Below are positions 15,845 to 48,410 of a stretch of 64,000 bases of DNA, piece after piece; the stretch's first letter is position 1, and every line of letters begins with the position of its first letter. The translations under genes and the position numbers were made by a program. Below the pieces are notes generated by a model, which did no database searches, was not told where the DNA came from, and saw only the letters and a list, made by a program, of their open reading frames with translations. The stretch covers positions 17,644-81,643 of the forward strand of contig JAQUQS010000007.1 in NCBI GenBank assembly GCA_028715965.1, given 5' to 3'. This DNA is from Candidatus Omnitrophota bacterium. Its GTDB lineage: Bacteria; Omnitrophota; Gorgyraeia; Tantalellales; Tantalellaceae.

Positions 15845-16014
15845 AAGTGGTGAGCCGCCTCGACGCGGAGGTCTCGGCACCCGCTCGCACATTTCGTGTT
15901 CGCTTGCCTTGGTCGCTCAGGGCTACAATGCTCCTACTCGTCTCATTGTCCACGCCCTTCTCGACACTTCCTCGGCCATTACGGCCTCGGTCGGACTCGG
16001 GGCTTTACATCTAA
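15845..16014 (+). repeat. Repeat family copy 1 (~170 bp), 5' end matches the tRNA-Lys 3' end
   Basis: aagtggtgagccgcctcgacgcggaggtctcgg...ctaaagcttattcc is nearly identical to 23754..23934 and 23997..24178. Confidence 0.9.
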
Positions 16015-16083
16015 AGCTTATTCCCACTCGTCCTCGCCTAAAACCTATAGATCCCGCCCGGCTAACACAGTGCCGGCGGATAT

Positions 16084-19000
16084 TTATTCACCGCATATAT
16101 ACTCTTCCCCCTTGAACGTATAGCCGGTAAATGTTGACCGGTTCTTAAGGATGGCGTTATATTTGGAGAGGATCTCGCTCTCACTGACGCTTCCGGATGG
16201 AGCATTTCTATCCTCTTTCCCGGCAAGATCAAGCGTACCGTTCTCGAATATGGCCACGATCCCGCCTTCAGTATCGTATTCGTAAATACTCAACAGATCC
16301 TCCGGATCCCTGTCGGTAGAGGAATACGCGTACACGAAGTGTAATGCCCCATCGTCCTCACCCTCATAATACTCGAATTCAAGCGCGCGTTCCCCTTTTG
16401 AATTGGCTTCCGCATACATCGTTGAAACAAGTATCTTCCCTGCCATATCATACTCGTAAACCGCTACAAGCTCATTCGAAGCACATGAAGTCGCGGAATA
16501 CGAAGAAACCCTGCTCGGCTGTATGGAATCCGCGTAATATTCGTACTTGAACGCGATCTCCCCCTTAGCGTTCGTTGCCTCAAGATGGGCTTCATCCGCC
16601 CTGGGCGCGCCCTGTGTATTCCAGGCCTGGTCGATATCCTCGTCGATGTAATGGTAATAGACCATCCCGCAAACATCTGCTTTCGGCATGGTCCGTGATT
16701 TCATGCGCTTTTCATTATCGGACGCCTCCGGGTTATAATATTCTGTGCTGCTTCCGTTCCAATCCCCGTTGTATCTTAAAAACCCCGAGAACACGGGATT
16801 ATGCGGATCCGTTACGTCGATATTTTCCCATTCCCATTGCCCGTAACGTTGATATTCATCGCCTATGACACTGTAGACATGCGCTATCCCGTCATAATAT
16901 TCCATTAACTCCCTGCCATATCCACGAAACTCCCAGTTCTCGTCAAGATAGTACTTTATAGAAGTATCCGGATCTTCTATATACGCTTTCATGAACCAGG
17001 ATTCCGGGTAATATACTATCTCCCATGATGTTTCTTCCGGCAGAAGCTGGCCTTCCTGATCGAACGTTTCGGTCACCACAGGGTTTGATAGTACGGGTAT
17101 GGAAGTATCCAGCTTATACTCAGCGGTATGATATCCTTTTCTTACGCTGACTATGTCCGTACCCTCATGGTATTCATACGTATACGCTTTCACTCCATAT
17201 TTATCGCCCGCTTTCAGTATGGATACGTCTATTCTACCCTCTTCATCGTAGTGAAAATAAACATAAGCCGGATCATCAAGATCTGGCCCCCTGACCGATT
17301 CTATCTCTCCTGTATCCGGATAATACGTGTACACTGTCCCGTAAAACCAGTCTTGCAGGGCCTGGTAATCCATCGCGTCAAGCGCGTTACCCTTATCATC
17401 CCAGAAAAGAAGCCCGTCATATCCGTGGTCGGCCAGTGTATCAAGTTTATTCGTCACATACGTCGGATCTATTTCCCCGCCTATAACAGGTTTCCCTTTC
17501 AGGTAATTGGGAGAGTAAAAATACTGCATCTTATCGTTCTTGTAACCGAACAGGTTGAGGCTCGCTTTGTCATAATCGGGGCTCTCCGTATTATCACCCT
17601 GCCAGTACTTGTAACTGTCATAATAATGGAACTGATAAAGATCAAGCACGCTCAGGTCCCCGTCGGCGCAAGCGTTATCGTAACTGACCCAGTACTTCAT
17701 CATCTCGGATTTTGTCAGACTGCCTACCGTGACCAGCGCTTCTGGATCTTTCTGGTGTATCATCGTCACGAATTTCCTCACGAATACCTGCATCTCTTCC
17801 ATCGTTACGCCTGTTATGTCCCCCAAATGCCCTTCACATGAGATCTCCGGCTCATTGATGACATCCCACGCGTATATGGCGTCATAATTGGCCAGTTTCA
17901 TGACCTCGTCGAAAAACCAGTCGAAATGAGCCAGCAAGACAGCCGTCGCGTTCTCGTCCTTTATAAGATCGACGTGCTCGTGGTCGGAAACACTTTCCAC
18001 GCCATCGGCCATCCTGTAATCGAATAATGTCGGGATAAGTTTTATGTTAAGTTCTTTCGCCGTATTCAAAAGCGTCTCCATGTCCTGTATGACGAAATCG
18101 GTGAACCCCGTAAAAGACCCGTTAGCGTCGAACATCATGCCGGCCCTCATATCGGCGAACAGGAACAACCTTACATATCCGTCTTTCCACTTTTCAAGGC
18201 CCGCCCTCAGTTCCTCATATCCCGTAAGGTTCTCCCATCCGCTTCGTCCCCTCGAATACCCGCTATGCCAGCCATCGACCGACCTTACTCCGATCCCTTC
18301 CCCGTAACGTATCCATGGCAGGTTACCCATGCCTATGAATTCCTTATCTCCGGCCGCGGCTACACGCTTTTCCAAAAGAGCGCCGTCTATCCTGTATGTC
18401 CTGGTTTCCAGCAAAGTATCCGTATCGCCGTCGTACTCAAAAACGGTATAGGACCCGTCCGGGAAAGTTTTTTTAATAAGACGTCCGTGCGCCTCATACG
18501 GTTCCGATAAAGGTAATGATATCAATAGCCCCTTTACGTCATCCTGGGTAAACCCGTTTTCCGGCAAAGCGTTAGCGTTGATATACGCGATAAGCTCTCT
18601 TATGCCCAATGTCCCGGGATCCACACCGATAAGGAAATCCTTCAGATCGCTGGGCTCATCGGCATAGTAAATAAGATCACTTAAAAACTGCCCAGCCTCT
18701 TTATCCGCGTAAAAAGCTTCGTCAGCATACTCATAAGTTATCTCCGTAGCCTCCTCCGCCTTAGTGAACTCACCTGCCTTTGTAGCGCACTCGAACCTGG
18801 TGTGTACTCTTCCCGAATCATAATACGTAAAAGGATATTCGGGGCCGGCGTGATCTGGCATGCCATAGGGGAAATGCGGAATGATCTCGTAAACGCTGAA
18901 GTTATCGAGATATACCTCATATAGCGTACCGGTAGTGATCTCTTCACCTGTCTCGAGCATGTTGGTCGCGGCTTCCCAGTCGATAGCGGTCTCTATATCG

Positions 19001-21885
19001 AGATCGCCGTCATACACATAGATCAGTCTCCTGGTCACCTGCGTACCGCATATTACGTCTTTAATAAAGACCGTTTCACCGTTCCCGCCAAAGACAAATG
19101 ATCCCCATGGACTTCCGTCCGGATCGCTTTCATAATAGCGCATGGTGAGTGAAGGTGAGCCGGAAGTCCCGAACACTTTCCTGTATACGGCGTTTTTTTG
19201 ATCATCTATGACCTTGACCGGCAAGAGCACACCCTCGATATATTCCCTGACGATACCCATTTCATCTCCCCCCAGATATTGCTTTTCCCTTACCAGGGTT
19301 CCCGCGGCATCGTAGAAATATTCATACGCCTTGACCAGTCCATCGACAACAGGCTGCTCCGGATCGCTATGATCTATGCTACTGTACAGTTTTTTCCGTT
19401 TGACGAGGTCCGAGCCGGGATAATACTCGTAAACATACCCCATAGCCCCTTCACTGTCGGCGAATATCCTCGCCGAAACATCAACGCGGCCCTGTCCCGA
19501 ACCAAGCCAGTCCTCGTTCATGTAATGATAGTATATGTTCCTGTTATCATCGGATCCCGTTAACGTCTTGGACCGCATCATTCCGGTATCGTTCCAATAT
19601 GTTGTTGTTGCTTTCAAGTACTTGAACTCGGGATTAGCGGGGTCGATCACATTGTCAGTCGGGCTGAAAAGTTCCAGTAGAGACACGTCACCATCCAGGA
19701 AATTCACGATATAAGCGTGCTGGTCACCCGGAGAGATGACCAGGTCTTTCGGGAGATCGCCAACGGGTATGTCCTGCACAAGTTTCGTATTAGTGGACAG
19801 GTCTATTACGGACACGCTATCACCGACGCCATTCGTCACATAAGCGTATTTCCCGTCCGCCGTGATCTCGATGCCTTCGGGCCCGTCTCCCACGGGAATA
19901 TCATTTGTCAGTTTTGTGCGGCTGGCAATATCTATCACCGATACCGTACCTGAATAGTTGTTCACGACGTATAAATAAGCCCCGTCCGGGGTGATCGCGC
20001 TATGACAGGGCCGGTCCCCCACGATAATATCTTCCGCGAGCTTAGTATTGGTGCTGAGATCGATCACCGACACACTGTCGCTACCTCCATTCGTCACATA
20101 GGCATATTCACCGGACGGATCGATCCTGATATGATATGGGGACGATCCTACTTCTATCGTTTTTATCTTTTGTTTCGCCTGAAGATCGACTACCGACACG
20201 GATCCGGCCAACCAATCCACCGTATAGCAATATCTGTCGTCTCCCGTCAACTCCATGGCCCAGGGGTACCTGCCCACCTGGATCGTTTCCGCCAGGACCT
20301 CGTCGTTCTCAAGATCTATTATTCCTATATAATCGTCCCTGCAACTCGTATAGTACGCATACCGCCCGTCACTGCTGATCTTTATGTCCCCGGGGTCCCG
20401 GCCGACATCAAGATCCTCTCCTACCTTTAGTTTTGTCGCCATATCGATCTTGGATATAGTGTTGGCCCCGTAATTCGTAACATACGCGAACCGTGAATCC
20501 GGCGTTATCTCAACGTAACAAGGTAAGTTCCCCATGCTGACATCCATATCGAGGTTCACATTAGTCAATATCTGCCCGCCGTGATAGGCATACGATGTTC
20601 GCGAAACGATCCTATCGGTAGCCCCGTCGTATTCGACCTCATACGCGACGGCCCCGTCGGCATCCGCCTCTTGCGCGACATATTTGTCCATCCTGCCGGA
20701 GGCCTCATTGATATAATGGTAATAGATGTTCCCGTTCTCATCGGGAGCCGAGAATGTTCTACTCTCGATAAACCCCGTATCGGAATAATATGTTACGCTT
20801 TCACCGTCTTTTTCCGTCTTTTCCAGCAATGGCTCATGGGTCGCGCCGGAAACATTCGCGTATTTATAGACCGTATATCCCGTTGGCGCATATGCCCGGG
20901 AGTATCCCTCCTTGATCAAGGCCCCGTTCTGCGAATAATACATATCCTTAATGAGTGCTCCATTTGCATCATATAATTCCACGATCCGGGGAACATCCGA
21001 CCCTTCCCAGAAGGATATGACCTTTTCGACAGAACCGTCCGCGAGAAAGGTCCTGATCACCCTTCCCTGCTGATGGCCATTGTAAGGTTCATCCGAATAT
21101 TCGTAACCTAAATGCCCTTTTGAGTTCGCTTTATCATAATATTTGCCGCTTATTCTTCCCGAAGGGTAATACTCTACGCGATAATTCCTTTCTCCGTTAT
21201 CATCGTAATATTCGGTATCTTGTTTTTTCCCCGTATTTCCGTCATATGTGAACTTGATCCGCTGTATACCTTTGAAATTGAAATATATCTTACTTGTCTT
21301 GAGTCCCTTCTCGTTAAAAGACTCTTTTTTGATCATCTGTCCTGAATGCGCGCTATAATATGTCCTGTCTTTCACGGTACCATTATCATGGTATCTTTCG
21401 CTATAAGATGCCTTGCCCGTCGAGGTGTTATAATACGTGACCTTCCGAGGCTTGCCGTTGTCATTAAATTCTATCCGTTTACACTTTTTCCCAAAATGAT
21501 CATAGCTATCCATCATGGAATAAAACCCGGTCACAAGATCATAATAAAACTCACTTGAAAGTCTTCCATTATTACCGTATTCCACTACGCGTATGCTCTT
21601 TCCATTTTCAGCGCGATAGACTATCCTGGTTCCACCTTTGCCTCTGATCCCGTATCTGGGAGACCACACGATCCTTCCCGCGTCATTATAATAATTGACC
21701 GACCGGGTTTTTGGCCCTAACTCCTGATACAAATATGTATAATAAAACCCCTGGAATAGACCGTACCAACCTGAATTGTACCTTTTAAATAGGTCAATAC
21801 TATCAGCCGATCCAAGACTGGTTATCAGCATTACGCTGACTACCATTAAAGCTATTAAGAGATTATGTTTTGGATATTTTCTCAT
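16084..21885 (-). CDS. Giant secreted/surface protein (1933 aa) with YD/RHS-like repeats, YVTN beta-propeller repeats and a GH5-like (clan GH-A) domain
   Basis: N-terminal signal/TM. Six or more ~40-aa repeats of YAYVTN...SVSVIDL. A segment containing WDVINEPE (the NEP catalytic motif of GH5). Many YY.D.G / Y.YD repeats. Confidence 0.8.
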   Translation of the reverse strand: MRKYPKHNLLIALMVVSVMLITSLGSADSIDLFKRYNSGWYGLFQGFYYTYLYQELGPKTRSVNYYNDAGRIVWSPRYGIRGKGGTRIVYRAENGKSIRVVEYGNNGRLSSEFYYDLVTGFYSMMDSYDHFGKKCKRIEFNDNGKPRKVTYYNTSTGKASYSERYHDNGTVKDRTYYSAHSGQMIKKESFNEKGLKTSKIYFNFKGIQRIKFTYDGNTGKKQDTEYYDDNGERNYRVEYYPSGRISGKYYDKANSKGHLGYEYSDEPYNGHQQGRVIRTFLADGSVEKVISFWEGSDVPRIVELYDANGALIKDMYYSQNGALIKEGYSRAYAPTGYTVYKYANVSGATHEPLLEKTEKDGESVTYYSDTGFIESRTFSAPDENGNIYYHYINEASGRMDKYVAQEADADGAVAYEVEYDGATDRIVSRTSYAYHGGQILTNVNLDMDVSMGNLPCYVEITPDSRFAYVTNYGANTISKIDMATKLKVGEDLDVGRDPGDIKISSDGRYAYYTSCRDDYIGIIDLENDEVLAETIQVGRYPWAMELTGDDRYCYTVDWLAGSVSVVDLQAKQKIKTIEVGSSPYHIRIDPSGEYAYVTNGGSDSVSVIDLSTNTKLAEDIIVGDRPCHSAITPDGAYLYVVNNYSGTVSVIDIASRTKLTNDIPVGDGPEGIEITADGKYAYVTNGVGDSVSVIDLSTNTKLVQDIPVGDLPKDLVISPGDQHAYIVNFLDGDVSLLELFSPTDNVIDPANPEFKYLKATTTYWNDTGMMRSKTLTGSDDNRNIYYHYMNEDWLGSGQGRVDVSARIFADSEGAMGYVYEYYPGSDLVKRKKLYSSIDHSDPEQPVVDGLVKAYEYFYDAAGTLVREKQYLGGDEMGIVREYIEGVLLPVKVIDDQKNAVYRKVFGTSGSPSLTMRYYESDPDGSPWGSFVFGGNGETVFIKDVICGTQVTRRLIYVYDGDLDIETAIDWEAATNMLETGEEITTGTLYEVYLDNFSVYEIIPHFPYGMPDHAGPEYPFTYYDSGRVHTRFECATKAGEFTKAEEATEITYEYADEAFYADKEAGQFLSDLIYYADEPSDLKDFLIGVDPGTLGIRELIAYINANALPENGFTQDDVKGLLISLPLSEPYEAHGRLIKKTFPDGSYTVFEYDGDTDTLLETRTYRIDGALLEKRVAAAGDKEFIGMGNLPWIRYGEGIGVRSVDGWHSGYSRGRSGWENLTGYEELRAGLEKWKDGYVRLFLFADMRAGMMFDANGSFTGFTDFVIQDMETLLNTAKELNIKLIPTLFDYRMADGVESVSDHEHVDLIKDENATAVLLAHFDWFFDEVMKLANYDAIYAWDVINEPEISCEGHLGDITGVTMEEMQVFVRKFVTMIHQKDPEALVTVGSLTKSEMMKYWVSYDNACADGDLSVLDLYQFHYYDSYKYWQGDNTESPDYDKASLNLFGYKNDKMQYFYSPNYLKGKPVIGGEIDPTYVTNKLDTLADHGYDGLLFWDDKGNALDAMDYQALQDWFYGTVYTYYPDTGEIESVRGPDLDDPAYVYFHYDEEGRIDVSILKAGDKYGVKAYTYEYHEGTDIVSVRKGYHTAEYKLDTSIPVLSNPVVTETFDQEGQLLPEETSWEIVYYPESWFMKAYIEDPDTSIKYYLDENWEFRGYGRELMEYYDGIAHVYSVIGDEYQRYGQWEWENIDVTDPHNPVFSGFLRYNGDWNGSSTEYYNPEASDNEKRMKSRTMPKADVCGMVYYHYIDEDIDQAWNTQGAPRADEAHLEATNAKGEIAFKYEYYADSIQPSRVSSYSATSCASNELVAVYEYDMAGKILVSTMYAEANSKGERALEFEYYEGEDDGALHFVYAYSSTDRDPEDLLSIYEYDTEGGIVAIFENGTLDLAGKEDRNAPSGSVSESEILSKYNAILKNRSTFTGYTFKGEEYICGE

Positions 21886-22184: not shown

Positions 22185-22565
22185 TCACTCCTTGCCATAA
22201 TATTTTTTAATTCTCTCTCTGTCCTCATTTCCCTTGTCACCTTTGAAATATACCTCAATAAACTCAATTTTATCTTCCTCTTTGAAGTAGGCGTAAATAA
22301 TTCTAATCCCGCTTTTTGCTCCTCTTCCCTTCAATGCCTTACAAGCAAACCTCTTCACCTTGTATATTTCAGGATATTCAATGCCGAGATTGGAGATCCT
22401 CTCTATACCATTTACTTCCTTACCCTTCTTATGTTTCAGTTTCAATGCAACCTTAATAAATGTCTCAATATCATCGTCGAGAGTTCTAAACCTCTTTTTT
22501 AGAGCTTTTAGATCTTTTGCGTACTCAGCAAGATGAACTATTTTATTAAAAATGCTATTCGGCAT
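22185..22565 (-). CDS. RelE/ParE-superfamily toxin (type II TA)
   Basis: 126 aa with the C-terminal IRIIYAYFKEEDKIEFIEVYFKGDK pattern. It overlaps the upstream HTH gene by 11 bp. Confidence 0.55.
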   Translation of the reverse strand: MPNSIFNKIVHLAEYAKDLKALKKRFRTLDDDIETFIKVALKLKHKKGKEVNGIERISNLGIEYPEIYKVKRFACKALKGRGAKSGIRIIYAYFKEEDKIEFIEVYFKGDKGNEDRERIKKYYGKE

Positions 22566-23340
22566 ATTCCCTCACCGAGTAAGGTGCCTTTCTATAGAAC
22601 ACGGATTCATACTCTATAATTTCACCATCCTCTGTAGATTCCCACGGAACATCACCATGTGAGTAGTCACTGATCTGCGTAGCATTCATATCAGATAACC
22701 TGCTATTCAATACATCGTCTATTGTTTCCTTTTCACGCGCGCTCAAAAGAGAAAGATCCGGCTTTCTCAAAGGTAAATACTTTTTCTGTAAATGCTGAAA
22801 ATATTTGTTCTGTACTTTTACCACCTCTTCATTCTCGATCATTTCTTCTACGATTTTTATAAATTCTTTTGGCGTCGGTCCATGATGATTTTTTATATAA
22901 GTAGCACCCATGAGCTGCTCCTCATATTTCTCGTAGAAATTAAAATCCATGAAATATAAAAGCTTGTACAAGACTGTTTCTCCAATATTGGGCTTAGATC
23001 CAACTTTTTCAAGGATATATATCAACACCTCTTTGAATTTTTTCAGATTTTTCTGGGGGACACTGATCCTTATTTCTTCTTTATGTTCTGCCTTCTTCAA
23101 ACTCTTCTCAAAAACAACTTCGATATCCTTTTTGATGTTCAGTAATACATCTGTAGGTATATTGAACACTTTAGCTACTTTAGTAATTTCCTCAGCACTA
23201 ATCTTTCTGTCTCCTGTCTCTATCTGAGAAACGGCCACTCTATTCACTCCAAGTTTTTTAGCTAACTCTTCCTGGGACAACCCCATTCTTTCTCTTATCT
23301 TTTTAATTTTTATCCCAAGATCTTTATAAAATCTATCCAT
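22555..23340 (-). CDS. HTH XRE-family regulator with C-terminal Panacea/DUF4065-like domain (antitoxin)
   Basis: N-terminal LSQEELAKKLGVNRVAVSQIETG helix-turn-helix. The C-terminal ~150 aa resembles phage-associated Panacea domains. Confidence 0.6.
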   Translation of the reverse strand: MDRFYKDLGIKIKKIRERMGLSQEELAKKLGVNRVAVSQIETGDRKISAEEITKVAKVFNIPTDVLLNIKKDIEVVFEKSLKKAEHKEEIRISVPQKNLKKFKEVLIYILEKVGSKPNIGETVLYKLLYFMDFNFYEKYEEQLMGATYIKNHHGPTPKEFIKIVEEMIENEEVVKVQNKYFQHLQKKYLPLRKPDLSLLSAREKETIDDVLNSRLSDMNATQISDYSHGDVPWESTEDGEIIEYESVFYRKAPYSVREYAE

Positions 23341-23556
23341 AAATTATACCCCCTTGTTATATTAAGTTTAACATATGTTGGTTTTTATGTCAATGCGTTG
23401 TTGTGTTATCTAACATACGACCGCCACACCACCCCCTTTTTGGGGTCTCGCCCGGGTGCGAGGCTAAAGGTCACACAACCTTAAGATAATATTCCCATCT
23501 GTTTCGCGTCAGACATTAGCTAACTATTATCTTACATATGGGGGAAGGAGGCCGTT

Positions 23557-23634
23557 ATGGGGTTTATGGTCGAGAAATTAGAGGAAATAGCTAAAATGTT
23601 AACGGGTCTAATAAAAAGTACCGACACTAAGTAA
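23557..23634 (+). CDS. Small ORF (25 aa) with strong RBS, hypothetical
   Basis: GGAAGGAGG lies 6 nt upstream of the ATG. It encodes MGFMVEKLEEIAKMLTGLIKSTDTK and is followed by a terminator hairpin at ~23720..23752. Confidence 0.3.
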   Translation: MGFMVEKLEEIAKMLTGLIKSTDTK

Positions 23635-23753
23635 GATTACTGATCAATATTCGTTAGTCGTTAGTCGACCGCATTCACGGCTACTTGCGGATCTCGACTT
23701 ACAAATGCTCTGTTAAATAAAAAACCAGGGGAGTGTACCCTGGTTTTTTATTT

Positions 23754-23996
23754 AACTGGTGAGCCGCCCTCGACGCGGAGGTCTCGGCACCCGCTCGCAC
23801 ATTTCGTGTTCGCTTGCCTTGGTCGCTCAGGGCTACAATGCTCCTACTCGTCTCATTGTCCACGCCCTTCTCGACACTTCCTCGGCCATTACGGCCTCGG
23901 TCGGACTCGGGGCTTTACATCTAAAGCTTATTCCCCTTCGCCTTCGTTATCTTACCATTAAAAAAGGAGACATCCTCTCGGAATGTCTCCTTTTTT
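23754..23996 (+). repeat. Repeat family copy 2 (243 bp unit including 3' terminator hairpin)
   Basis: It starts aactggtgagccgccc and ends with the hairpin aaaaaaggagacatcctctcggaatgtctcctttttt. Confidence 0.9.
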
Positions 23997-24240
23997 AAAG
24001 TGGTGAGCCGGCCTCGACGCGGAGGTCTCGGCGCCCGCTCGCACATTTTGTGTTCGCTTGCCTTGGTCGCTCAGGGCTACAATGCTCCTACTCGTCTCAT
24101 TGTCCACGCCCTTCTCGACACTTCCTCGGCCATTACGGCCTCGGTCGGACTCGGGGCTTTACATCTAAAGCTTATTCCCCTTCGCCTTCGTTATCTTACC
24201 ATTAAAAAAGGAGACATCCTCTCGGAATGTCTCCTTTTTT
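23997..24240 (+). repeat. Repeat family copy 3 (244 bp), tandem to copy 2
   Basis: Near-identical to copy 2 with a few substitutions. A fourth partial start aaagtggtgag follows at 24241. Confidence 0.9.
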
Positions 24241-24524
24241 AAAGTGGTGAGGGGGGCGGGGGTATAGGACCAATTTATCTCTCTTCTGAGGAGCTAATTA
24301 ACGGGTGTTTACTATACGGTTAAATGCCCCATTTAACGGGATTCCCTATATAGATGGCTATTCAGAGATATGTTTCGAGGTGAATATAGCTACTTCAAGA
24401 TGGACTCGAACTATTATTTTGTCCAATTTGTCCGGGGTTTAAGGATCTTGTTTACGATAACTTTATATCAATAAATGTGTTAGGTTGTGTCCAAGCTGTT
24501 TAGGCGGACATGGTAGGCCTTATC

Positions 24525-25025
24525 TCAAATGACGTTATCATTTTGAGCATCTACAACAAACTTTTTTAGTTCTTCTAAATATTTTGTAGATAATGTCAGT
24601 ATATCTTCTTTCCCTGGATAGTCAGTAAACTCAAATTTGCTTGTTTTTGTGTTCGGGTTTACTTTCTCTGCTTTTTTACTGGGTGTGAAATACTTTTTCT
24701 CTTTTTTATCAACAACCAACTTTGTGCCAATAATAGAAATCGTAAGGTTAACATCTCTAGTTATTGGGACACTCTGTTCATGTATATTAAAATTCCTTTT
24801 ATCTCTGAAATACCCCATATATTGAGTATTACTTATATAGCTCTCATACCATCTTTCCTTTTGCCTTCTCCTAGCCTCTTCTAGTAGATACTGTGCAGTT
24901 GATCTTGAACTTGTCAAAAAAGCACTGAGATTAAATCTGAATTCTTCAGGCTTTTCTGAACACGCTCCCATCTGCCTTAAAAAATAAGATGCTTCCCTTA
25001 TCTTTGAAATTACATGTCCCCTCAT
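24525..25025 (-). CDS. Hypothetical protein, possible HEPN-like (Rx4H)
   Basis: 166 aa containing KRNFNIHE. The HEPN assignment is weak. Confidence 0.35.
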   Translation of the reverse strand: MRGHVISKIREASYFLRQMGACSEKPEEFRFNLSAFLTSSRSTAQYLLEEARRRQKERWYESYISNTQYMGYFRDKRNFNIHEQSVPITRDVNLTISIIGTKLVVDKKEKKYFTPSKKAEKVNPNTKTSKFEFTDYPGKEDILTLSTKYLEELKKFVVDAQNDNVI

Positions 25026-25035
25026 AATAATTCAT

Positions 25036-25431
25036 CTACCCCATCTTCCTATCTGATCCATTTTCATTCAACCCCTCAAGGCTTTTATAAGAATATGCTA
25101 CCGAAATGGTAACTTTAAATCCTTTTGGGATTCCCCCATATTCCCCTGCTGGTTTGGCTAAATCAAAATAGCTACCCTTTATCATCTCAGTTACTTTTCT
25201 TACAACCTGTGGGTCCCCAAGATATTTCGCTATGGCCTGCCTTATTTCTTTTGGCGGCAGTGGTTGTCTTTTATATTCAGCTTTTCCAGAAGCCATGTCA
25301 AAGTTGCCTAGTTTTTTACTTCCTTTCCAAATTTCAACATGCGGGGATGGAGTTCTTCCACAAACATGGTCATCTTTTCTAAAAGTTATTCTATATCTAC
25401 CGTATTGCCTCTCCAATGGACCATTGTTCAT
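25036..25431 (-). CDS. Hypothetical protein, DUF4160-like
   Basis: 131 aa. The N-terminal RITFRKDDHVCGRTPSPHVEIWKG resembles the DUF4160 pattern (H..PPH.H). Confidence 0.4.
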   Translation of the reverse strand: MNNGPLERQYGRYRITFRKDDHVCGRTPSPHVEIWKGSKKLGNFDMASGKAEYKRQPLPPKEIRQAIAKYLGDPQVVRKVTEMIKGSYFDLAKPAGEYGGIPKGFKVTISVAYSYKSLEGLNENGSDRKMG

Positions 25432-25452
25432 CTGTTTTTCCTTTCACACGTA

Positions 25453-25989
25453 TTACACAAACACAAGTTCATTATCTGCAATTTTTTGCCCCCCGTGAAA
25501 AATACTCCATCTAGCGTTTTCTCTATCTCTTCCAATAATAACGTGAAATCCATATTTATACCCATATTGTGATGTCATTACTTCTAAATTATTATAATCC
25601 TTAGCTATATTTCCAGAACTACAATTGTTCCATTTTTTAATCTCAAAACAAAGAAAATCATTGCTTCCACCTAAAATACGTCGGTGAATAATAATATCAA
25701 CAAATCTACCTGTTGTAGATCCATCTGGATTCGGAATAATCTTTCCATGACGCTCCATTATTTCTATCGGCACTCCTTTCTCATCATATATTATTTCCCA
25801 AGAAGAATTAAAGTCACAATCTACATGGTAAGAATCAAATTGCAACTGCAAATAATGTGCTAACCGGAAGGTTAGGCATCGCTCGCCAACCCCTTGCCCA
25901 TAATTTCGTTCAAATAAAAAAGCGTCTTCTCCATATAATCGCATTAAAGCTTCTCTTATTTGTCGTTTAATTACATTTATATTACTCAT
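25453..25989 (-). CDS. Hypothetical protein with PD-(D/E)xK-like motif
   Basis: 178 aa. FVDIIIH ... FLCFEIKKW gives a D...ExK arrangement. Confidence 0.4.
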   Translation of the reverse strand: MSNINVIKRQIREALMRLYGEDAFLFERNYGQGVGERCLTFRLAHYLQLQFDSYHVDCDFNSSWEIIYDEKGVPIEIMERHGKIIPNPDGSTTGRFVDIIIHRRILGGSNDFLCFEIKKWNNCSSGNIAKDYNNLEVMTSQYGYKYGFHVIIGRDRENARWSIFHGGQKIADNELVFV

Positions 25990-26007
25990 CCTTATACTCT
26001 CCGGCTT

Positions 26008-26466
26008 TTATGATTCTTTCAGATACAGTATCAACAAAAAAACCAAGGCTCCAACGACAACCCCGGCCCAAAACTTATCAATTTTTATTCTTTCGGCCAC
26101 ATTCTCAATGGCTTTATGTAATTTTTCCGGCGCCTGTTTAATATCAATTGCTTGGTGCCTATCTATCCATCCGGGTAATTCTTCGGGGCTTATGTCTATC
26201 AACAAAGGTACTATCGTTTTTTGCTGAACAAGCGCGCCGCCTAACTCTTGTTGCACTGCCTTGGAGTCGCAAGATATTTTTGACGCCAAGAAAAACACCC
26301 ACTTTGCTTCCCTTAACTTTTCAAATATCACCTCTGTCCATCTTTCTCCAGGCTCTATAGATATCCCTGCCATAAATGTCTCTATTCCTGCTCGAGTCAT
26401 AGCATAATGCAATTTTTCTGCCATCTCTTTATCTTCCACCGCATAACTGATAAAAGAATTAACCAT
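26008..26466 (-). CDS. TIR-domain protein with C-terminal transmembrane helix
   Basis: FISYAVEDKEMAEKL...AGIETFM...KWVFFLASKISCDSKAVQQELGGAL fits the bacterial TIR pattern with a putative catalytic Glu. The C-terminus FWAGVVVGALVFLLILYL is hydrophobic. The start was set at the Met preceded by an AAGGAGG Shine-Dalgarno. Confidence 0.7.
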   Translation of the reverse strand: MVNSFISYAVEDKEMAEKLHYAMTRAGIETFMAGISIEPGERWTEVIFEKLREAKWVFFLASKISCDSKAVQQELGGALVQQKTIVPLLIDISPEELPGWIDRHQAIDIKQAPEKLHKAIENVAERIKIDKFWAGVVVGALVFLLILYLKES

Positions 26467-26519
26467 CAATATCCTCCTTATTCTGAACACTATATATTGT
26501 ACCACTTTACATATAATTG

Positions 26520-28181
26520 TTACATACTCCGCAGGGAGTCCACCTTGGGAAGTGGCCATTGTGCCCTTGATGGCTCCTCAGGATATACATCCCAGGTATA
26601 AAGACAACAACCGCCCTTATAACTCTGCGCCAGAGTCACTGCCATCTCGAGAGCATCAGGACCATCATCGTGTCTTCCCTTCGGGTATTGCTTCAACTGC
26701 TCTAGTAGGGTTATATGCCGCCTCGAAAACTGCAGGGTTCCGCTCTTTATAAGCGGCTGGAGGGCTTCTATACGCTCATATTTATGGCTAGTGTGGTTGA
26801 CCCCTTCTATGCCTAGCCGTTGTTCATTAGCCTCGATCCGCTCTCGGAGATCGTCCAACATAAGAGCTTGAAACTGATTGCTCTCCACTCTAAATTTTTT
26901 ATACCCTCGCAAGTCATGATACTTAACAATAACACCTATGGTTTTATCCGGATGTAGCCTGTCAATGTGCGCATCCAGTACATACATCTTCTTGGTCTTC
27001 ATATCCTTGGCCACGGTAATGATCGCCGAAAAGTCCCCCTTGCGTTTACTGGTCCCCAGGCTTGGGTCACATGCACCGAAAAACAACGCATCTCCCTGGA
27101 ATGAGGCCAAGAGCTCCTCCTCGTTTTCAAATTTATCATCCCAGAAATGTATATCATCCAGATTAAAAATACAGTCCTTAGGATTGACGGGCTCATTTTG
27201 CATCTCGGCATCAAAGCTGACATGTCCCTCCTGCTCACGCATAACCATGAGCTCATAATATGATCTTCTCTCCGGCCACAGTACCTCCGTGCCCTTAAGC
27301 ATTTTTGATTTATAACGTTCAAAATATTGTTTGGCGGCTTCGGGGCCATATTCCCCTTTATACGACTCCCTGTTGTTGTAAATATGTGTCCATCTCTCCC
27401 ATCTTTTAGGACCGTCTGACCACTTAACAACAGCTCTATATACCTGTTTCCTCCATCCCGGATAAGCATCCTGGCTCGTAAACTGGGAAAGTAACGAATG
27501 ATAGTGATGTATGGTTCCTATTAGAACTATATTGGTCTCAGCGCTGCCCGCCTTAAAGACCGCGTTGGTCAAGGCACTCTGCAGCTTATCCATCACTTCG
27601 GGGTTAAGACAGGTGTCGTTATTTTCAACATCATCGGCAATAATAAGACTAGGTCTTATTTCCCGATTCCTTAATCCCCTAACCTGCTGACTTGCCCCTA
27701 AAGCCAGGATTTTAATGCCATTTTTCGTTATGATCTCCTTTCTCTGCCATTTAGCCGGAGTCGGCACTTTCCAATTTTCGCACACCTCAGGAAAATCCTC
27801 TAGCAGCCTCTCATTGTTCTCAATTTCACTTTTGATATTCTCGAGAAATGTCGCGGCCTGCTCCGAGGTGTTTGATACAATGAGAATAAATTTCTCGAGA
27901 TCATAACACACACAGTAAATAACATACTGAAGCGTTAATATGGTACTCTTGGCGCTTTCCCGGGGAGCAGCGATGGCCAGCTTAGACCCTCTATTGTCTT
28001 TGAGCTTTTGAAGATCCGCTGTAAACTCTGTCTGGAATGGACCATCTTTCAACTTGTTGTAATGTGAAAAATAATAGCTCCTAAAATCGGCAAAGTTTGT
28101 AAATTTCTCCCGCCTTTTCTTTATAAGTTCCGCCTGCATTAAAATTGTTATCTTATTTTTATTTATCTTTTTCATCTTCAT
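26520..28181 (-). CDS. Phage terminase large subunit (ATPase + nuclease)
   Basis: 553 aa with a Walker A-like APRESAKST motif and a C-terminal RNase H-like nuclease region. It overlaps the upstream small-subunit gene. Confidence 0.75.
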   Translation of the reverse strand: MKMKKINKNKITILMQAELIKKRREKFTNFADFRSYYFSHYNKLKDGPFQTEFTADLQKLKDNRGSKLAIAAPRESAKSTILTLQYVIYCVCYDLEKFILIVSNTSEQAATFLENIKSEIENNERLLEDFPEVCENWKVPTPAKWQRKEIITKNGIKILALGASQQVRGLRNREIRPSLIIADDVENNDTCLNPEVMDKLQSALTNAVFKAGSAETNIVLIGTIHHYHSLLSQFTSQDAYPGWRKQVYRAVVKWSDGPKRWERWTHIYNNRESYKGEYGPEAAKQYFERYKSKMLKGTEVLWPERRSYYELMVMREQEGHVSFDAEMQNEPVNPKDCIFNLDDIHFWDDKFENEEELLASFQGDALFFGACDPSLGTSKRKGDFSAIITVAKDMKTKKMYVLDAHIDRLHPDKTIGVIVKYHDLRGYKKFRVESNQFQALMLDDLRERIEANEQRLGIEGVNHTSHKYERIEALQPLIKSGTLQFSRRHITLLEQLKQYPKGRHDDGPDALEMAVTLAQSYKGGCCLYTWDVYPEEPSRAQWPLPKVDSLRSM

Positions 28182-28782
28182 CCTCCTTCATTAATATAGT
28201 TAACCCTTCTTTGATATCTGCCAGCTCTTCCTTCTCATCATCGCTCATGTAACTGCTAAGCTCTTCCATTTGCTTTTGTATAGATGCTATCTCCTCTTTG
28301 AGGCCATTAGTAGCATCCCCATGGTGATATATATCCCCCACCACTTTCTGTGGTGCCATGGGCATGTACCCAAGGGTTTGAAGCTTGGCGATGGTATCAA
28401 GTTCAAGGCGAGACGCATAATATATAGCTTGGGCTCTTTCACTTACAGAGGCTCCCTGTTGACGAGACAGTTTTATAAGATATTGAACATGTGACCTGGT
28501 ATTTTTAAGGAGTTCTCCAACCAACTGACATGCCAACTCCATATTGGGCACAATGGCGTTTTTTTGCCTGATCTCGTCCAAATCTCGCTTGATAGTTTTT
28601 TCACTTCTTCCAAGCAGTTTTGCCATTTGACTGTTTGAATATCCCTCGAGCTGCAGCGCCTCAACACACTCTTGCCGTTCTTCCTTAGACAAGGTAGCGG
28701 GGTTTATTTTGCCATCATGGATGTTTTGTATAATCCTCATAACAGGCTGTTCCTGTTTTTTCTGCGGTTTTTCTTTAGGCAT
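28159..28782 (-). CDS. Terminase small subunit-like HTH DNA-binding protein
   Basis: HTH at SNSQMAKLLGRSEKTIKRDL. It sits immediately upstream of the terminase large subunit. The start was set at MPKEKPQ with a G-rich Shine-Dalgarno. Confidence 0.55.
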   Translation of the reverse strand: MPKEKPQKKQEQPVMRIIQNIHDGKINPATLSKEERQECVEALQLEGYSNSQMAKLLGRSEKTIKRDLDEIRQKNAIVPNMELACQLVGELLKNTRSHVQYLIKLSRQQGASVSERAQAIYYASRLELDTIAKLQTLGYMPMAPQKVVGDIYHHGDATNGLKEEIASIQKQMEELSSYMSDDEKEELADIKEGLTILMKEDEDEKDK

Positions 28783-30037
28783 CTTCACCACCCCCTGAAT
28801 AGCGATCATACAGATCTTTAGCCACACTATCTGCCCCTGCATAGGCGATATATCGCCTAACTATGGCATCACAATATCGCGGGTCTATTTCAACTCCATA
28901 ACAGCGTCTTCCAAGAGACTCTGCCGCGATTAAAGTTGATCCGGATCCAAGAAATATATCCAAAACGATATCACCTCTGACGGAACTATTCTTGATGGCT
29001 CTCTGGGCAAGAGCGACAGGCTTCTGCGTGGGATGGATGTATGATTTTGTCAAATCGCGCTTTATCTGCCATACAGTTGACTCGTTAGCGGAGCCGAACC
29101 ATTTATGCGGACCGTTGCCTTCAAGCCAACCATAAAGGCAGAACTCGCTCTGCTGATTGTAGTCGCTATATCCGAGGGCAAAACTTTCCTTGACCCAGGT
29201 GATAACACAGGCTATATGGCATCCGACCCCTTGCAAGACCTTATGCATTAGACCGAACTGCTTATATCCATTCCACACATAAAAGGCGGCTCCTTCCGCC
29301 AGAGGCTTAATAGCTTCAGAAAATACACCCTTGAACCATTCATCATAGACTTCCTGATTCATAGCGTCAGCTTCTATCGGCTTCCATCTTCTTTCCCGTT
29401 TTGTTTTTGTGGGACGCAGGGTATCATCATAACCAACGTTGTATGGAGGATCAGTATGTAGCATTTCTGCGGCGGCACCATTAAGCAGCTTCTGATAAGT
29501 CCCGGGAACCAAAGCATCAGCGCAAATAAGCCTATGCTTCCCCAATTCCAAAATATCACCTGGCTTAGTGATGGGCTTTTTCTCTTCATCCATAAAGCTA
29601 TCAATGTCAGGATCTTCTTCTCCTGAGATGTTGAACTTGTCATAGAGCTGGCTGATCTCCGGCAAATCGAATCCTGTCAGGCTAATATCAATATCCGGTG
29701 TCTCCTCTATCTCCTTGAGAAGACTCGCCAACATTTCTTCATCCCATTTTCCAGTGATCTTATTAAGGGCTAGGTTAAGGGTCTTTTCTTTTTCTAAAGG
29801 AAGATCGACAACAACTACTTCTACAGATTCTACCCCCATCGCGATAAGAACCTTTAACCGTTGATGCCCTCCTATAATGTTTCCTGTTCGTTTATTCCAG
29901 ACAATGAGCTCCACACAACCAAACTCAGTTATACTGCGCTTGAGCTTTTCGTATTCCGGGTCTCCCGGCTTGAGGTCTTTGCGTGGGTTGTATCCGGCAG
30001 GCTTGAGCTTTTTGATCGGCACTTTTTGTATCTTCAT
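28775..30037 (-). CDS. ParB-like nuclease domain fused to DNA N6A/N4C methyltransferase
   Basis: N-terminal ParB/Srx fold with GGHQR. DPPY (motif IV) and C-terminal FLGSGST (motif I) indicate a beta-class amino methyltransferase. Confidence 0.8.
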   Translation of the reverse strand: MKIQKVPIKKLKPAGYNPRKDLKPGDPEYEKLKRSITEFGCVELIVWNKRTGNIIGGHQRLKVLIAMGVESVEVVVVDLPLEKEKTLNLALNKITGKWDEEMLASLLKEIEETPDIDISLTGFDLPEISQLYDKFNISGEEDPDIDSFMDEEKKPITKPGDILELGKHRLICADALVPGTYQKLLNGAAAEMLHTDPPYNVGYDDTLRPTKTKRERRWKPIEADAMNQEVYDEWFKGVFSEAIKPLAEGAAFYVWNGYKQFGLMHKVLQGVGCHIACVITWVKESFALGYSDYNQQSEFCLYGWLEGNGPHKWFGSANESTVWQIKRDLTKSYIHPTQKPVALAQRAIKNSSVRGDIVLDIFLGSGSTLIAAESLGRRCYGVEIDPRYCDAIVRRYIAYAGADSVAKDLYDRYSGGGEDA

Positions 30038-32163: not shown

Positions 32164-33660
32164 CTATTTACTCATTCGTTCCAGTTCTTGTTTTATAACC
32201 ATCGACGCCTTGCAGTCATCCTCATTATATTCAAGTATCCTATTCAGGATACTTTCATCTTTCGTTTCACAATATTCGTTATACCACTTGATTGATAACG
32301 CCCCGGATGGGGTTTCGTCCCGCCACTTGAAACCAAGATATGTAGCGATTTCTTTTAATGAATAACTCGGTAATGGCCAGTCTGTTTTACTGTAAATGGC
32401 CTCATAATATAAATCTATAATATGAGGCTGATTGAAATATGTTTCCACTTCTTCCGGAGTTACTATGTCCGGATAAAGACCAGCTAAAGCTTTATATGTA
32501 GTTTTCTCGTGACTAGAATAGTAATAAACAGCATGAGATTTATCTTCAAAGGACTTCAGATAATCCCATAGTTCTTTAAAGGCTTGTTTCTCTCCTACTT
32601 CATCTGTACTTTTTGCAACAAATGCAACAAACCTTTCTTTGTCTCCAATCTTCTCGTAAATACCATGCAGATAAACTATACCCCTCATTGGATCATCTTC
32701 TATATCAAGATATAGCTCAGCATCAACTTCAGGAAAAGATATCGGCTCATAGAAAACAGGTTTCTGTTCATTATTTAAGACCTGTGCTCTTTTGTGAATC
32801 TGGGTTAATGTCTTATCACCAAGCTGCATGCCTTTGAGCTTATCTTTTTCTAGTTTCTTGGTGGTAAGAATGGTTTCTAGATCTATCTCTGACATTTGCT
32901 TAGTCGTCATAATTCCAAATACATCATTTAATGCATCGCGTTTACTTCGCCCCAAATAAAATAACTTTGTAAGGTCATCTTTTCCATAGCACCACTTTTT
33001 ACAACTCGTATACCATATACACATCTTGCATACAGATCCTAACGCTGGTATATTTTGAACCTCGTCAGCAATTAACTTTCTTGTCTCTGCCTTTATTTCT
33101 TCATAATATTGCCAATAAGTCCTCAAGTCCTTTTTCCCCATAGGCAGGTCTAAATCATACTCTACCTCTTCTCCATGACCATCTATTATGATTCCTTTAT
33201 TTTTAGAAGCATATCCAAGCTTTTGCAGAATATCAACATATAGACATAATTGAACTGCATAATGTTTCTTTAGTTTTTCTTCTCCATTTTCTGAAAAATC
33301 GCCATAGCCCCTACCTGATTTGATATCAATTGGTATATATTTGTCCCCGTCCTTTTTTAGTAGATCAGGTATACCCATCATATCCTCATATTCGATTACA
33401 CCCTGATATATGAGCTCGGCGCCTTCATCCATTGCTTTTTTTGTTTTTTCAATCCTTTCCTCAAAGGTTCCGCCTGAAATATCTGTATATTTACCAATAG
33501 ATTCAATTATTTCTTTCTCATGCAGAACCCCTCTATCCCAGATAAGCTGCAAGAAGGCATTTTCCTCATCTTGCTTCTCATTCTGAGGTCCATAAATATC
33601 CCGCCACACCCTGTGCGGACATTGGATATAGTTATACAATTTAGAGGCTGTTATGGTCAT
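32164..33660 (-). CDS. RecB/Cas4-family PD-(D/E)xK nuclease with 4-Cys cluster and C-terminal RNase H-like domain (TM0106-like)
   Basis: N-terminal YNYIQCPHRVWRD, IPDLL...IDIKSG, QLCLY and CKMCIWYTSCKKWC match the Cas4-like nuclease pattern. C-terminal YLDIEDD...YYYSSHE...NEDDC matches a DEDD-like exonuclease pattern. The start forms an ATGA overlap with the upstream OLD-family gene. Confidence 0.65.
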   Translation of the reverse strand: MTITASKLYNYIQCPHRVWRDIYGPQNEKQDEENAFLQLIWDRGVLHEKEIIESIGKYTDISGGTFEERIEKTKKAMDEGAELIYQGVIEYEDMMGIPDLLKKDGDKYIPIDIKSGRGYGDFSENGEEKLKKHYAVQLCLYVDILQKLGYASKNKGIIIDGHGEEVEYDLDLPMGKKDLRTYWQYYEEIKAETRKLIADEVQNIPALGSVCKMCIWYTSCKKWCYGKDDLTKLFYLGRSKRDALNDVFGIMTTKQMSEIDLETILTTKKLEKDKLKGMQLGDKTLTQIHKRAQVLNNEQKPVFYEPISFPEVDAELYLDIEDDPMRGIVYLHGIYEKIGDKERFVAFVAKSTDEVGEKQAFKELWDYLKSFEDKSHAVYYYSSHEKTTYKALAGLYPDIVTPEEVETYFNQPHIIDLYYEAIYSKTDWPLPSYSLKEIATYLGFKWRDETPSGALSIKWYNEYCETKDESILNRILEYNEDDCKASMVIKQELERMSK

Positions 33661-37582: not shown

Positions 37583-38149
37583 TCACAAAACCTGTTTCTG
37601 TATCAAAAACCAATACATCATCAGATCTTGTTCTTTTAATTTTGGGTTTTTAAATTTCTTTTCAATAATATTCCAGAAATGTTTATTGTGTTTTCGCTCC
37701 TCTAAGTGAGCGATCTCATGAAAAAGAACATATTTCACAAGGTTATCCGGCAAATACCGCATTAGGGCATTGACTGTTATAATCCTATTCTGCGAACAAC
37801 TTGCCCATTTTGTTTTCATGGTTTTGAAATCTAGTCTTTTAATCTCTATCTTCAAGGGCTTCAGATATTCATCAAGTGTTTTCCTTACAAAACCTTTAAA
37901 GCTGTCGATGTCTCTTTTGACTTTTAACTGTTCTCCCTCGCTTCTATCCAGAGAGGCTTCTATCTGATCATGTTTGGACATGATCCATTTCTCATGTTTC
38001 AATAAGAGTTCGGCTTCAGTCTCCTTCCAATCCTTGGGTACAATTAATTTTAAGATACCTGTCTTGAACTCAAGCCGTGGATGTTTAACTTTCCTGTACT
38101 CGGTCTGGTAAAACACAACCTTGTTATATGCTTTTATCGGTTTATCCAT
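37583..38149 (-). CDS. DUF45/YgjP-like (M48/WLM-type) metal-dependent hydrolase commonly linked to hsdR
   Basis: YVLFHEIAHLEERKHNKHFW is an HExxH motif at the characteristic position. It overlaps the hsdR stop by 8 bp. Confidence 0.7.
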   Translation of the reverse strand: MDKPIKAYNKVVFYQTEYRKVKHPRLEFKTGILKLIVPKDWKETEAELLLKHEKWIMSKHDQIEASLDRSEGEQLKVKRDIDSFKGFVRKTLDEYLKPLKIEIKRLDFKTMKTKWASCSQNRIITVNALMRYLPDNLVKYVLFHEIAHLEERKHNKHFWNIIEKKFKNPKLKEQDLMMYWFLIQKQVL

Positions 38150-42420: not shown

Positions 42421-42429
42421 TGGCTTCCT

Positions 42430-44438: not shown

Positions 44439-44759
44439 ATGATGGAAAATGAGAAAAAGCAGGGCCCTACAGGGTTATCTGACGAGGCCAAAGCCAGGCT
44501 GGACGAGTTTATTAAGGCCTATGACCCCATTAACAATAAGGCTTTACGGCAAAATGGGACTGGAGCATTACGGATCCGAGACAGGCGGCTGCCAATCCCC
44601 GGAACGGTCATATCTAAGGTATATAAAGGTACTACTATTGATGTTAAGGTGCTGGATAAGGGATTTGAGTATGACGGTAAGGCTTACCGTTCATTAAGTG
44701 CCATTGCCGGAGCGGTAACTGATCAACATTGGAATGGTTACCTATTTTTCGGTCTATAA
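44439..44759 (+). CDS. Small protein upstream of serine recombinase (DUF2924-like)
   Basis: 106 aa ending ...AVTDQHWNGYLFFGL. Position and size are typical of recombinase-associated small proteins. The family name is from memory. Confidence 0.45.
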   Translation: MMENEKKQGPTGLSDEAKARLDEFIKAYDPINNKALRQNGTGALRIRDRRLPIPGTVISKVYKGTTIDVKVLDKGFEYDGKAYRSLSAIAGAVTDQHWNGYLFFGL

Positions 44760-44773
44760 ACGAGGAGAGTTCA

Positions 44774-48325: not shown

Positions 48326-48401
48326 GTGGTGAGCCGCCTTGGACTCGAACCAAGCACAACCACATTAAAAGTGTGGTGCTCTACCTGATGAGCTAGCGGC
48401 C
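48326..48401 (-). tRNA. tRNA-Lys (anticodon TTT), CCA encoded
   Basis: The reverse complement is GGGCCGCTAGCTCATCAGGTAGAGCACCACACTTTTAATGTGGTTGTGCTTGGTTCGAGTCCAAGGCGGCTCACCA. The anticodon loop is CTTTTAA. Confidence 0.9.
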
Positions 48402-48410
48402 CTTATTCCT

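Follow-up and report, generated by a model that had tools for sequence, protein, structure and literature searches.

Do four small genes that stand close together in a bacterial genome, one of them encoding a TIR protein, make up a single anti-phage system, or are they separate pieces of cargo that happen to lie side by side? The question is raised by a stretch of 64,000 nucleotides (nt) of DNA from a Candidatus Omnitrophota bacterium, hereafter the window, in which a first-pass annotation had placed four open reading frames (ORFs) on the minus strand between positions 24525 and 26466; all four are present there, and their products match NCBI entries of a Candidatus Omnitrophica metagenome-assembled genome at 100% identity. 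We number them from gene 1, encoding a TIR protein of 152 amino acids (aa) with a C-terminal membrane helix, to gene 4, gene 2 being the one with nuclease-like features (Table 1), and use the label TIR-TM for the gene 1 product and likewise for its homologues. The cluster forms the tRNA-distal end of an island of low GC content (0.30-0.46 compared with ~0.50 in the flanks), the low-GC stretch running from ~21900 to a tRNA-Lys(UUU) gene, next to which the island appears to have integrated.

The reading towards which we lean is that the four genes are independent cargo that lies together at the tRNA-distal limit of a defence island, rather than a co-evolving system, and that gene 1 is an autonomous tail-anchored TIR. 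What makes the locus worth attention is the uncharacterised family of miniature TIR proteins to which gene 1 belongs and the association of the gene 2 nuclease with restriction operons, not a four-gene system.

The four families do not recur together

Independent loci carrying a homologue were collected for each gene, 37 for TIR-TM, 10 for gene 2, 4 for gene 3 and 3 for gene 4, about 54 in all, and searched for the other members of the cluster by tblastn at E<=0.1. The TIR-TM set was drawn from 32 genome loci of many phyla, from two complete genomes and from the contigs that carry the two closest relatives, and comprises ~37 independent loci. Three of the gene 2 loci (L059, L060 and L061, each with the gene 2 match at 5001) were examined for the nuclease and for hsd genes only, which leaves 51 loci in the screen for all four proteins. 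Not one of these 51 holds two of the four families. The sole exception among the loci that we fetched, L054, has the identical four-gene order and is the same genome re-assembled. In particular, the products of genes 2 to 4 were not detected by this search in any of the ~37 TIR-TM loci outside this genome.

The first-pass annotation had proposed a four-gene module in which a TIR NADase works with small nuclease-like partners. Because no two of the families recur together across the independent loci screened, such a module is not supported, and in our reading the four-gene "system" consists of cargo genes that chance has placed next to one another where a defence island ends. Neither are these phage morphogenesis genes, the other possibility that had been considered; the Mu-like terminase gene upstream of them has lost its morphogenesis module.

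A family of tail-anchored miniature TIR proteins

The start of gene 1 at 26466, 53 nt beyond the stop codon of the large terminase gene, is preceded by a ribosome-binding site, AAGGAGG, and yields a protein of 152 aa, in agreement with the 151-153 aa of its homologues. A longer ORF of 183 aa was considered and rejected as the TIR gene for these two reasons.

Residues 5-112 of the protein match the Pfam family TIR_2 (PF13676) at E 2.4e-19 and 70.4 bits, for a cut-off of 28 bits, which is far beyond chance. A search of 5.8 billion protein clusters returned 103 relatives, nearly all of them 151-153 aa long and 40-69% identical to gene 1, and in an alignment of 24 members F5, I6, S7, D12 and E74 (in the motif VQQELG) are, among others, invariant. 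The family profile matches TIR NADases of the PDB, namely AbTir, Cat1, SpbK, SARM1, SPARTA and a TIR-STING fusion, with E values of 1e-6 to 4e-5 for the TIR chains of AbTir, SpbK, SPARTA and Cat1. In the alignment with AbTir (7uwg) the counterpart of E74 is the Glu of "NYELDG", E208, the catalytic residue of the WxxxE motif (PMC11374754). The TIR call and the candidate catalytic Glu, both read from the sequence in the first pass, therefore stand.

The second constant feature of the family is its C-terminus. In gene 1 the best 19-residue window has a mean Kyte-Doolittle hydropathy of 2.24 and covers residues 132-150; a hydrophobic helix occupies the same position in 24/24 members (mean 1.6-2.8), with 1-5 residues after it. 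This is a tail-anchor signature, predicted to leave the TIR domain in the cytoplasm. TIR defence proteins are already known, as is PD-lambda-3; we found no literature report of a tail-anchored bacterial TIR family of 150 aa.

Members of the family are scattered over Omnitrophota, Planctomycetota, Gamma-, Alpha- and Betaproteobacteria, Campylobacterota, Nitrospirota, Ignavibacteria, Thermotogae and other groups, and the profile has no match in 2.9 million viral contigs. Clustering of the neighbouring ORFs by phmmer in 31 loci revealed no neighbour family that recurs beside TIR-TM. Among 108 ORFs that flank the homologues the commonest are Eco57I and N6 methylases, XamI and GmrSD restriction enzymes, RiboL-PSP HEPN proteins, integrases and transposases, and DUF4238 proteins are frequent as well. 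One close relative (L055) lies 8 nt upstream of a type I hsdM gene and beside the PADLOC candidate PDC-S11, another (L057) shares its island with a gene for a serine recombinase and with PD-lambda-2-like genes, and a few homologues are found among ordinary metabolic genes (as in the two complete genomes, L008 and L009). Given the lack of a recurrent partner, the restriction-modification and mobile-element neighbours and the spread over many phyla, the TIR-TM family is, to judge from its genomic context, a self-contained and horizontally mobile defence-island gene that travels alone between phyla.

In L008 (6563-7201) and L009 (6549-7259) the TIR-TM homologue is followed by an Rx4H protein of 212 or 236 aa, one of which has a sub-threshold match to HEPN_Apea (E 4e-4). 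We rejected a HEPN protein as partner of TIR-TM: these two neighbours are homologous neither to each other nor to the 166-aa product of gene 4.

A PD-lambda-3A-type protein whose close relatives mostly live in restriction operons

Gene 2 matches the PADLOC model PD-Lambda-3_A at E 7.1e-14 (profile positions 21-150 of 159) and has no match in Pfam, PD-(D/E)xK models included, at E<=1. It has 109 detectable relatives, and D57, D59, D98, E116 and K118 are invariant in 30 homologues, a classical D...ExK core; the nuclease-like motif (D98, E116, K118) that had been proposed for the 178-aa protein is thereby borne out. Alignment of the gene 2 family with PD-lambda-3A of E. coli (WP_001542736; L051 3887-4366) by hhalign gives a probability of 98% and E 6.5e-14, at an identity of only ~31%. 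The same PD-(D/E)xK region is indicated by the HHpred results that the authors of PD-lambda-3A obtained (Vassallo et al. 2022, PMC9519451).

PD-lambda-3 consists of component A, a PD-(D/E)xK protein of ~159 aa, component B, with AbiJ_NTD3 and a Ymh/TIGR02391 HEPN domain, and component C, an Mrr nuclease with a beta-propeller (PMC9519451), and acts by abortive infection (PMC13190303). We recovered this canonical three-gene arrangement on an E. coli plasmid (L051). In the cluster described here component B has no counterpart: genes 3 and 4 lack PADLOC and Pfam matches, and comparison of each with E. coli PD-lambda-3B by hhalign gives a probability of 0.2%. No gene with Mrr and beta-propeller domains, as in component C, is present in the cluster.

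The relatives of gene 2 keep different company. In five of six independent loci a close relative stands directly after hsdM and before hsdS of a type I restriction operon (L001 4482-10917, L005 3475-8610, L059, L060 and L061); the sixth follows a gene for a DEAD/MZB helicase of 1741 aa, and more distant copies on plasmids stand alone. Gene 2 is thus a stand-alone PD-(D/E)xK protein of the PD-lambda-3A type, whose close relatives are as a rule found within type I restriction operons. Such a position suggests, by analogy, that proteins of its type may serve as back-up effectors for restriction systems. The gap between hsdM and hsdS in L005 also holds a Schlafen/AlbA_2 protein and a protein of 304 aa without assignment.

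Gene 3 is an orphan and gene 4 probably marks the island terminus

Gene 3 has no match in Pfam (E<=1), PADLOC or PHROG, and an exhaustive HMMER search of 1.84 billion representatives yielded only two convincing relatives, both small. Matches to Big_3_5 Ig repeats were discarded as repeat-boosted local similarity on a short strand motif, G-x-V-E-F-x-x-G-x-x-x-L-G, and not homology. Its relatives occur in four metagenome loci, next to a Vsr endonuclease, a DUF4160/DUF2442 pair or a SIR2-like protein, and none of the other three families is found in these loci. An AlphaFold2 model from the single sequence has a predicted local distance difference test (pLDDT) score of 54 and consists of a small N-terminal beta-sheet and two helices; Foldseek finds nothing in the PDB at E<0.05, generic sheet-plus-helix matches only. 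The protein had been called DUF4160-like on the strength of a short Y-R-x-x-F...P-H-V pattern. That assignment finds no support, as gene 3 has no match to PF13711 at E<=1 and an hhalign probability of 0.3% to a reference DUF4160 protein (L048 1434-1769, PF13711 E 1.6e-19). Gene 3 represents a rare orphan family.

For gene 4 we found nine relatives, all at least 59% identical. The Rx4H motif noted before, R77-NFNI-H82, is real and is kept in the full-length relatives; the HEPN identity suggested along with it is not backed, there being no match to a HEPN model or to anything else in Pfam (E<=1), nor any in PADLOC or PHROG. Conservation of the motif carries little weight, because the relatives are so similar and because Rx4H is common by chance, with many instances in random ORFs. 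An AlphaFold2 model built with the nine-sequence alignment is unusable (pLDDT 36); it predicts four helices within residues 2-76, followed by Rx4H, an order that is compatible with HEPN and not diagnostic of it. The gene upstream varies from locus to locus, being gene 3 here, a gene for a 266-aa protein without assignment in L042, which has no hhalign match to the gene 2 family, and one for a DUF2971/PDC-S31 protein in L045.

What stays constant is the other side of gene 4. A non-coding stretch of ~280 nt is kept downstream of the gene 4 family in all loci where this region is visible. Within it are several GGACA repeats and the sequence GTTCGAGTCCA, which matches the T-loop region of the tRNA-Lys gene at the other end of the island letter for letter, and it terminates in CCTCACCA; the invariant blocks are TGTCCGCC...GGACA...CTAAC, the GGACA repeats, AGTTCGAG and the CCTCACCA end. 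Beyond it lie two tandem units of 244 nt whose final letters, GGCGGCTCACCA, reproduce the 3' end of tRNA-Lys exactly. Does this region encode an RNA? A search of 23300-24600 against Rfam gives nothing at the gathering threshold and only noise at E<=5, and RNAalifold on the ~280-nt stretch, of which only four distinct copies exist, predicts a few hairpins with almost no covariation. We therefore see no case for a structured RNA at this end of gene 4, the folding z-score of the ~200-nt repeat described below, -1.25, included. The conserved motif has no match in viral contigs. The stretch is probably a terminal or att-proximal region of the island with recombinase binding sites rather than an RNA. 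Together with gene 4 it may make up the constant end of a group of related islands that integrate at tRNA genes and differ in the cargo upstream, and a terminal role of this kind argues against gene 4 as a partner of the TIR protein or of the nuclease.

A repeat of ~200 nt is present in three minus-strand copies, 96-98% identical, two of them within the tandem units (period 244 nt) and the third just downstream of a gene for a 1933-aa protein, not at a tRNA gene. The copies end in GGCGGCTCACCA, that at 24001-24199 in GCCGGCTCACCA, with one mismatch, and each of the two tandem copies is followed by a bidirectional terminator hairpin. The repeat has no Rfam match, and its z-score is only the value given above; it could be an att-site remnant, an element like a miniature inverted-repeat transposable element or a tRNA-like small RNA.

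Weighing independent cargo against coupled function

Several observations weigh against the view that the four genes are independent and that gene 1 acts by itself. The genes follow one another at 10-21 nt (18, 21 and 10 nt from gene 1 to gene 4) in the same orientation, one promoter is plausible, no terminator within the cluster is convincing, and the genes are probably co-transcribed; functional coupling in this genome is therefore possible, and co-transcription is the only real argument for regarding the four as a unit. A PD-lambda-3A homologue is followed, two genes on, by an Rx4H protein, and PD-lambda-3 has been described as "nuclease, HEPN" (PMC9519451). Gene 1 has no sensor domain, so that whatever triggers it is a matter of pure conjecture. 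Lastly, the Trp of WxxxE is absent from the TIR-TM family, the position four residues before E74 being variable (Ala in gene 1), and an invariant Ala (A33) stands at the equivalent of AbTir D167, a residue needed for the NADase activity of AbTir (PMC11374754). The equivalent of AbTir R151 is not conserved either. Neither the Trp nor D167 nor R151 is universal among active TIRs. With the Trp and D167 equivalents absent, NADase activity of the family is not assured; we consider an enzymatic activity of gene 1 likely.

Could TIR-TM then be something other than an autonomous effector? It might synthesise a signal, in the manner of ThsB, for an effector encoded at another place in the genome, act as a TIR scaffold without enzymatic activity, or be a membrane protein with a housekeeping role. 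Gene 1 does show weak similarity to ThsB, sub-threshold for Pfam ThsB_TIR (15.4 bits for a cut-off of 21.2) and at E 4e-4 to 1e-2 for PADLOC ThsB models, and the homologues among metabolic genes in L008 and L009, as well as the lack of conservation of AbTir-critical residues besides the Ser and the Glu, point the same way. However, no ORF between 22185 and 47953 encodes a SIR2, Macro or SLOG protein, as the first-pass annotation had already noted in setting the locus apart from canonical Thoeris, so the island offers no ThsA-type gene, and none is prominent among the 108 neighbours of the homologues. The scattered distribution over phyla, with restriction-modification and mobile neighbours, fits mobile defence cargo and not a housekeeping role. 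On balance we judge a non-autonomous TIR-TM unlikely.

Genes 2 to 4 could alternatively be a diverged abortive system of the PD-lambda-3 kind, with the 166-aa Rx4H protein in place of PD-lambda-3B and the TIR gene as a separate neighbour. The PD-lambda-3A homology of gene 2, the "Nuclease, HEPN" listing and abortive action of PD-lambda-3, and the R-x4-H of gene 4 directly after its four predicted helices are what this reading can draw on. It is nevertheless quite improbable, since neither the gene 3 nor the gene 4 family resembles PD-lambda-3B by hhalign, no Ymh/TIGR02391, AbiJ_NTD3 or other HEPN model is matched, the adjacent Mrr/beta-propeller component is missing, gene 2 homologues elsewhere do without such a partner, and gene 4 homologues follow the unrelated PDC-S31/DUF2971 and 266-aa proteins.

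That all four genes form one new abortive-infection system, with a membrane TIR NADase, a PD-(D/E)xK nuclease, a DUF4160-like protein and a HEPN RNase, is highly improbable and largely refuted by the gene-neighbourhood data, since against tight co-directional genes that follow a candidate promoter and have no good terminator between them, and against an identical arrangement in L054, an independent assembly of the same organism, stand the failure of the DUF4160 and HEPN assignments in model and profile tests, the distinct typical neighbourhood of each family and the absence of a second family from all of ~54 independent loci (with L059-L061 outside the screen for the other three).

The island and its surroundings

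Independent cargo at the end of an island is thus the reading that we carry forward, and the features that surround the four genes are collected in Table 1.

Table 1. Features of the cluster, the island and its flanks (positions in the window)
Feature	Position	Strand	Remarks
Gene 1, TIR-TM, 152 aa	26008-26466	minus	TIR domain residues ~3-125; membrane helix ~132-150; candidate catalytic E74
Gene 2, PD-(D/E)xK nuclease-like, 178 aa	25453-25989	minus	distant PD-lambda-3A homologue
Gene 3, 131 aa	25036-25431	minus	rare family, no assignable domain
Gene 4, 166 aa	24525-25025	minus	Rx4H motif R77-H82; last gene before the conserved non-coding island end
Conserved non-coding stretch, ~280 nt	24243-24524	minus	3' of gene 4; aligns with L042 8502-8780, L044 380-695, L045 4070-4360
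Candidate sigma-70-type promoter, GTAACA-16-TGgTACAAT (TG extension)	26496-26523	minus	lies in the last (3') part of the terminase coding sequence, immediately before gene 1; consensus scan only, which by itself says nothing of function
Island, apparent extent (roughly)	24243-48326
tRNA-Lys(UUU) gene	48327-48402
~200-nt repeat, two tandem copies	23757-23955, 24001-24199	minus	tandem region 23747-24234
~200-nt repeat, third copy	15848-16036	minus
1933-aa protein gene	16084-21885		outside the island
Likely toxin-antitoxin pair	22185-23340
Methylase, small-terminase-like and large terminase genes	26520-30037
ABC ATPase and nuclease genes	32164-35513
hsdM, hsdS, hsdR	38142-44184
Large serine recombinase gene	44439-46075
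AbiV-type HEPN gene	46433-47953
6S RNA gene	56170-56325	minus	Rfam RF00013, 61.8 bits

From the tRNA gene inwards the cargo of the island consists of an AbiV-type HEPN gene, a large serine recombinase with DUF2924 and a type I restriction system; further inwards of a YgjP-like peptidase, a DUF2130 protein and an OLD/AriA/GajA-like ABC ATPase with a Cas4/RNase H-like nuclease; and, next to gene 1, of a ParB-N6/N4 methylase, a helix-turn-helix (HTH) protein resembling small terminases and a Mu-like large terminase (TerL). The AbiV-type gene is the first beside tRNA-Lys and encodes 506 aa, of which the N-terminal part is the HEPN domain (E 4e-17) and ~350 residues have no assignment. On the strand opposite to it lies the serine recombinase, the sole recombinase of the island, in which there is no tyrosine integrase. 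The type I restriction system is complete, with hsdM, hsdS and hsdR, and lies 12 kb from gene 2.

The ABC ATPase has 618 aa, and its gene overlaps by 4 nt that of a 498-aa protein in which a Cas4-like PD-(D/E)xK domain at the N-terminus is joined to an RNase_H_2 domain at the C-terminus; the two genes have the look of a defence pair, without being an exact fit to any named system. The Mu-like TerL is 39% identical to that of Faecalibacterium phage Mushu. No portal, capsid or tail genes follow it or occur elsewhere in the island, and for this reason we rejected a working prophage; the methylase, HTH and terminase genes may be what is left of a prophage, or else a packaging module of the satellite type that the defence island has kept.

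Between the repeats and the gene for the 1933-aa protein, a 261-aa protein with HTH_3 and SocA/Panacea antitoxin-like domains is encoded by a gene that overlaps one for a 126-aa protein without family match, the two being likely to form a toxin-antitoxin pair. The 1933-aa protein carries beta-propeller domains of the lactonase/YncE/cytochrome-D1 type, and its gene has host-like GC content. It is the only beta-propeller protein here; since it lacks an Mrr domain and is encoded outside the island, we judged it unrelated to PD-lambda-3C. A 6S RNA gene was found elsewhere in the window.

How a tethered TIR might act

We propose that gene 1 works as follows. The C-terminal helix would hold the TIR domain at the cytoplasmic face of the inner membrane, and the tether would keep the mini-TIR inactive until infection, upon which the tethered domains might assemble or be released. 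The conserved Glu might then catalyse NAD+ hydrolysis or the production of a signal derived from ADP-ribose, and the infected cell would be stopped, that is, abortive infection would follow. The gene 2 product would act on its own, as a DNA nuclease or back-up effector.

Taken one step further, the tail-anchored TIRs of 151-153 aa may be a new and widespread single-gene immune module, in which a TIR enzyme is held in check by its membrane tether and switched on at the membrane by an event such as phage genome injection, holin activity, proteolytic release or the failure of a neighbouring restriction system; we offer this tentatively and regard it as rather doubtful. If the mini-TIR protects alone, a membrane anchor would suffice to turn a TIR domain into a regulated immune effector, and the family would provide a very small and tractable model for the triggering of TIR assembly.

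Comparison with known systems

The PADLOC model named TIR-TM (PDLC03016) shares with gene 1 its name and the general idea of a TIR domain plus a membrane segment. We rejected gene 1 as a member, as the match is marginal (E 0.005, 14.7 bits) and the model, of 293 positions, describes a larger architecture.

Effectors of the PrrC/RloC type are embedded in type I restriction cassettes; PrrC itself, encoded in the prr locus, is an anticodon nuclease of the ABC-ATPase type. The relatives of gene 2 between hsdM and hsdS, and the TIR-TM relative 8 nt upstream of hsdM, occupy a prrC-like position, which suggests that PD-lambda-3A-type nucleases, and sometimes the mini-TIR, might be PrrC-like back-up effectors guarding restriction. 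Unlike PrrC, to which they bear no sequence relation, neither gene 1 nor gene 2 lies within the restriction operon in the window, which is 12 kb away. With PD-lambda-3 of E. coli ECOR28 (PMC9519451) the cluster has in common a homologue of component A; it differs in that B and C are absent and in that the clade of gene 2 is typically found in type I restriction operons.

Thoeris resembles gene 1 in having a small defence-island TIR protein, and gene 1 has weak similarity to ThsB models, below the Pfam cut-off for ThsB_TIR. There is, however, no ThsA (SIR2-SLOG or TM-Macro, TM standing for transmembrane) nearby or in the island, and here it is the TIR protein that bears the membrane helix. The TIR NADases and single-protein TIR abortive-infection factors, namely AbTir, SpbK of ICEBs1, SPARTA and Cat1, share with gene 1 the TIR_2-type domain, the Ser of the betaA "FIS" motif and the alphaC Glu, whereas gene 1 has no N-terminal sensor or partner domain and consists only of a TIR domain and one C-terminal helix.

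One further parallel is eukaryotic. TirC of Dictyostelium carries a TIR domain of bacterial origin, and its single N-terminal transmembrane helix restrains a filament-forming toxic NADase, which turns toxic when the helix is removed (bioRxiv 10.64898/2026.04.30.722052). Like gene 1 it is a TIR domain with one membrane helix and nothing else; in contrast to gene 1, its helix is N-terminal and its TIR derives from those of the TIR-STING type; the likeness considered here is one of architecture and TIR fold. The toxicity of TirC without its helix is a precedent for the tether-based control proposed here for gene 1. If the family is indeed a single-gene immune module, gene 1 and its homologues would be the smallest known autonomous TIR defence, a bacterial counterpart of the membrane-tethered TirC of amoebae.

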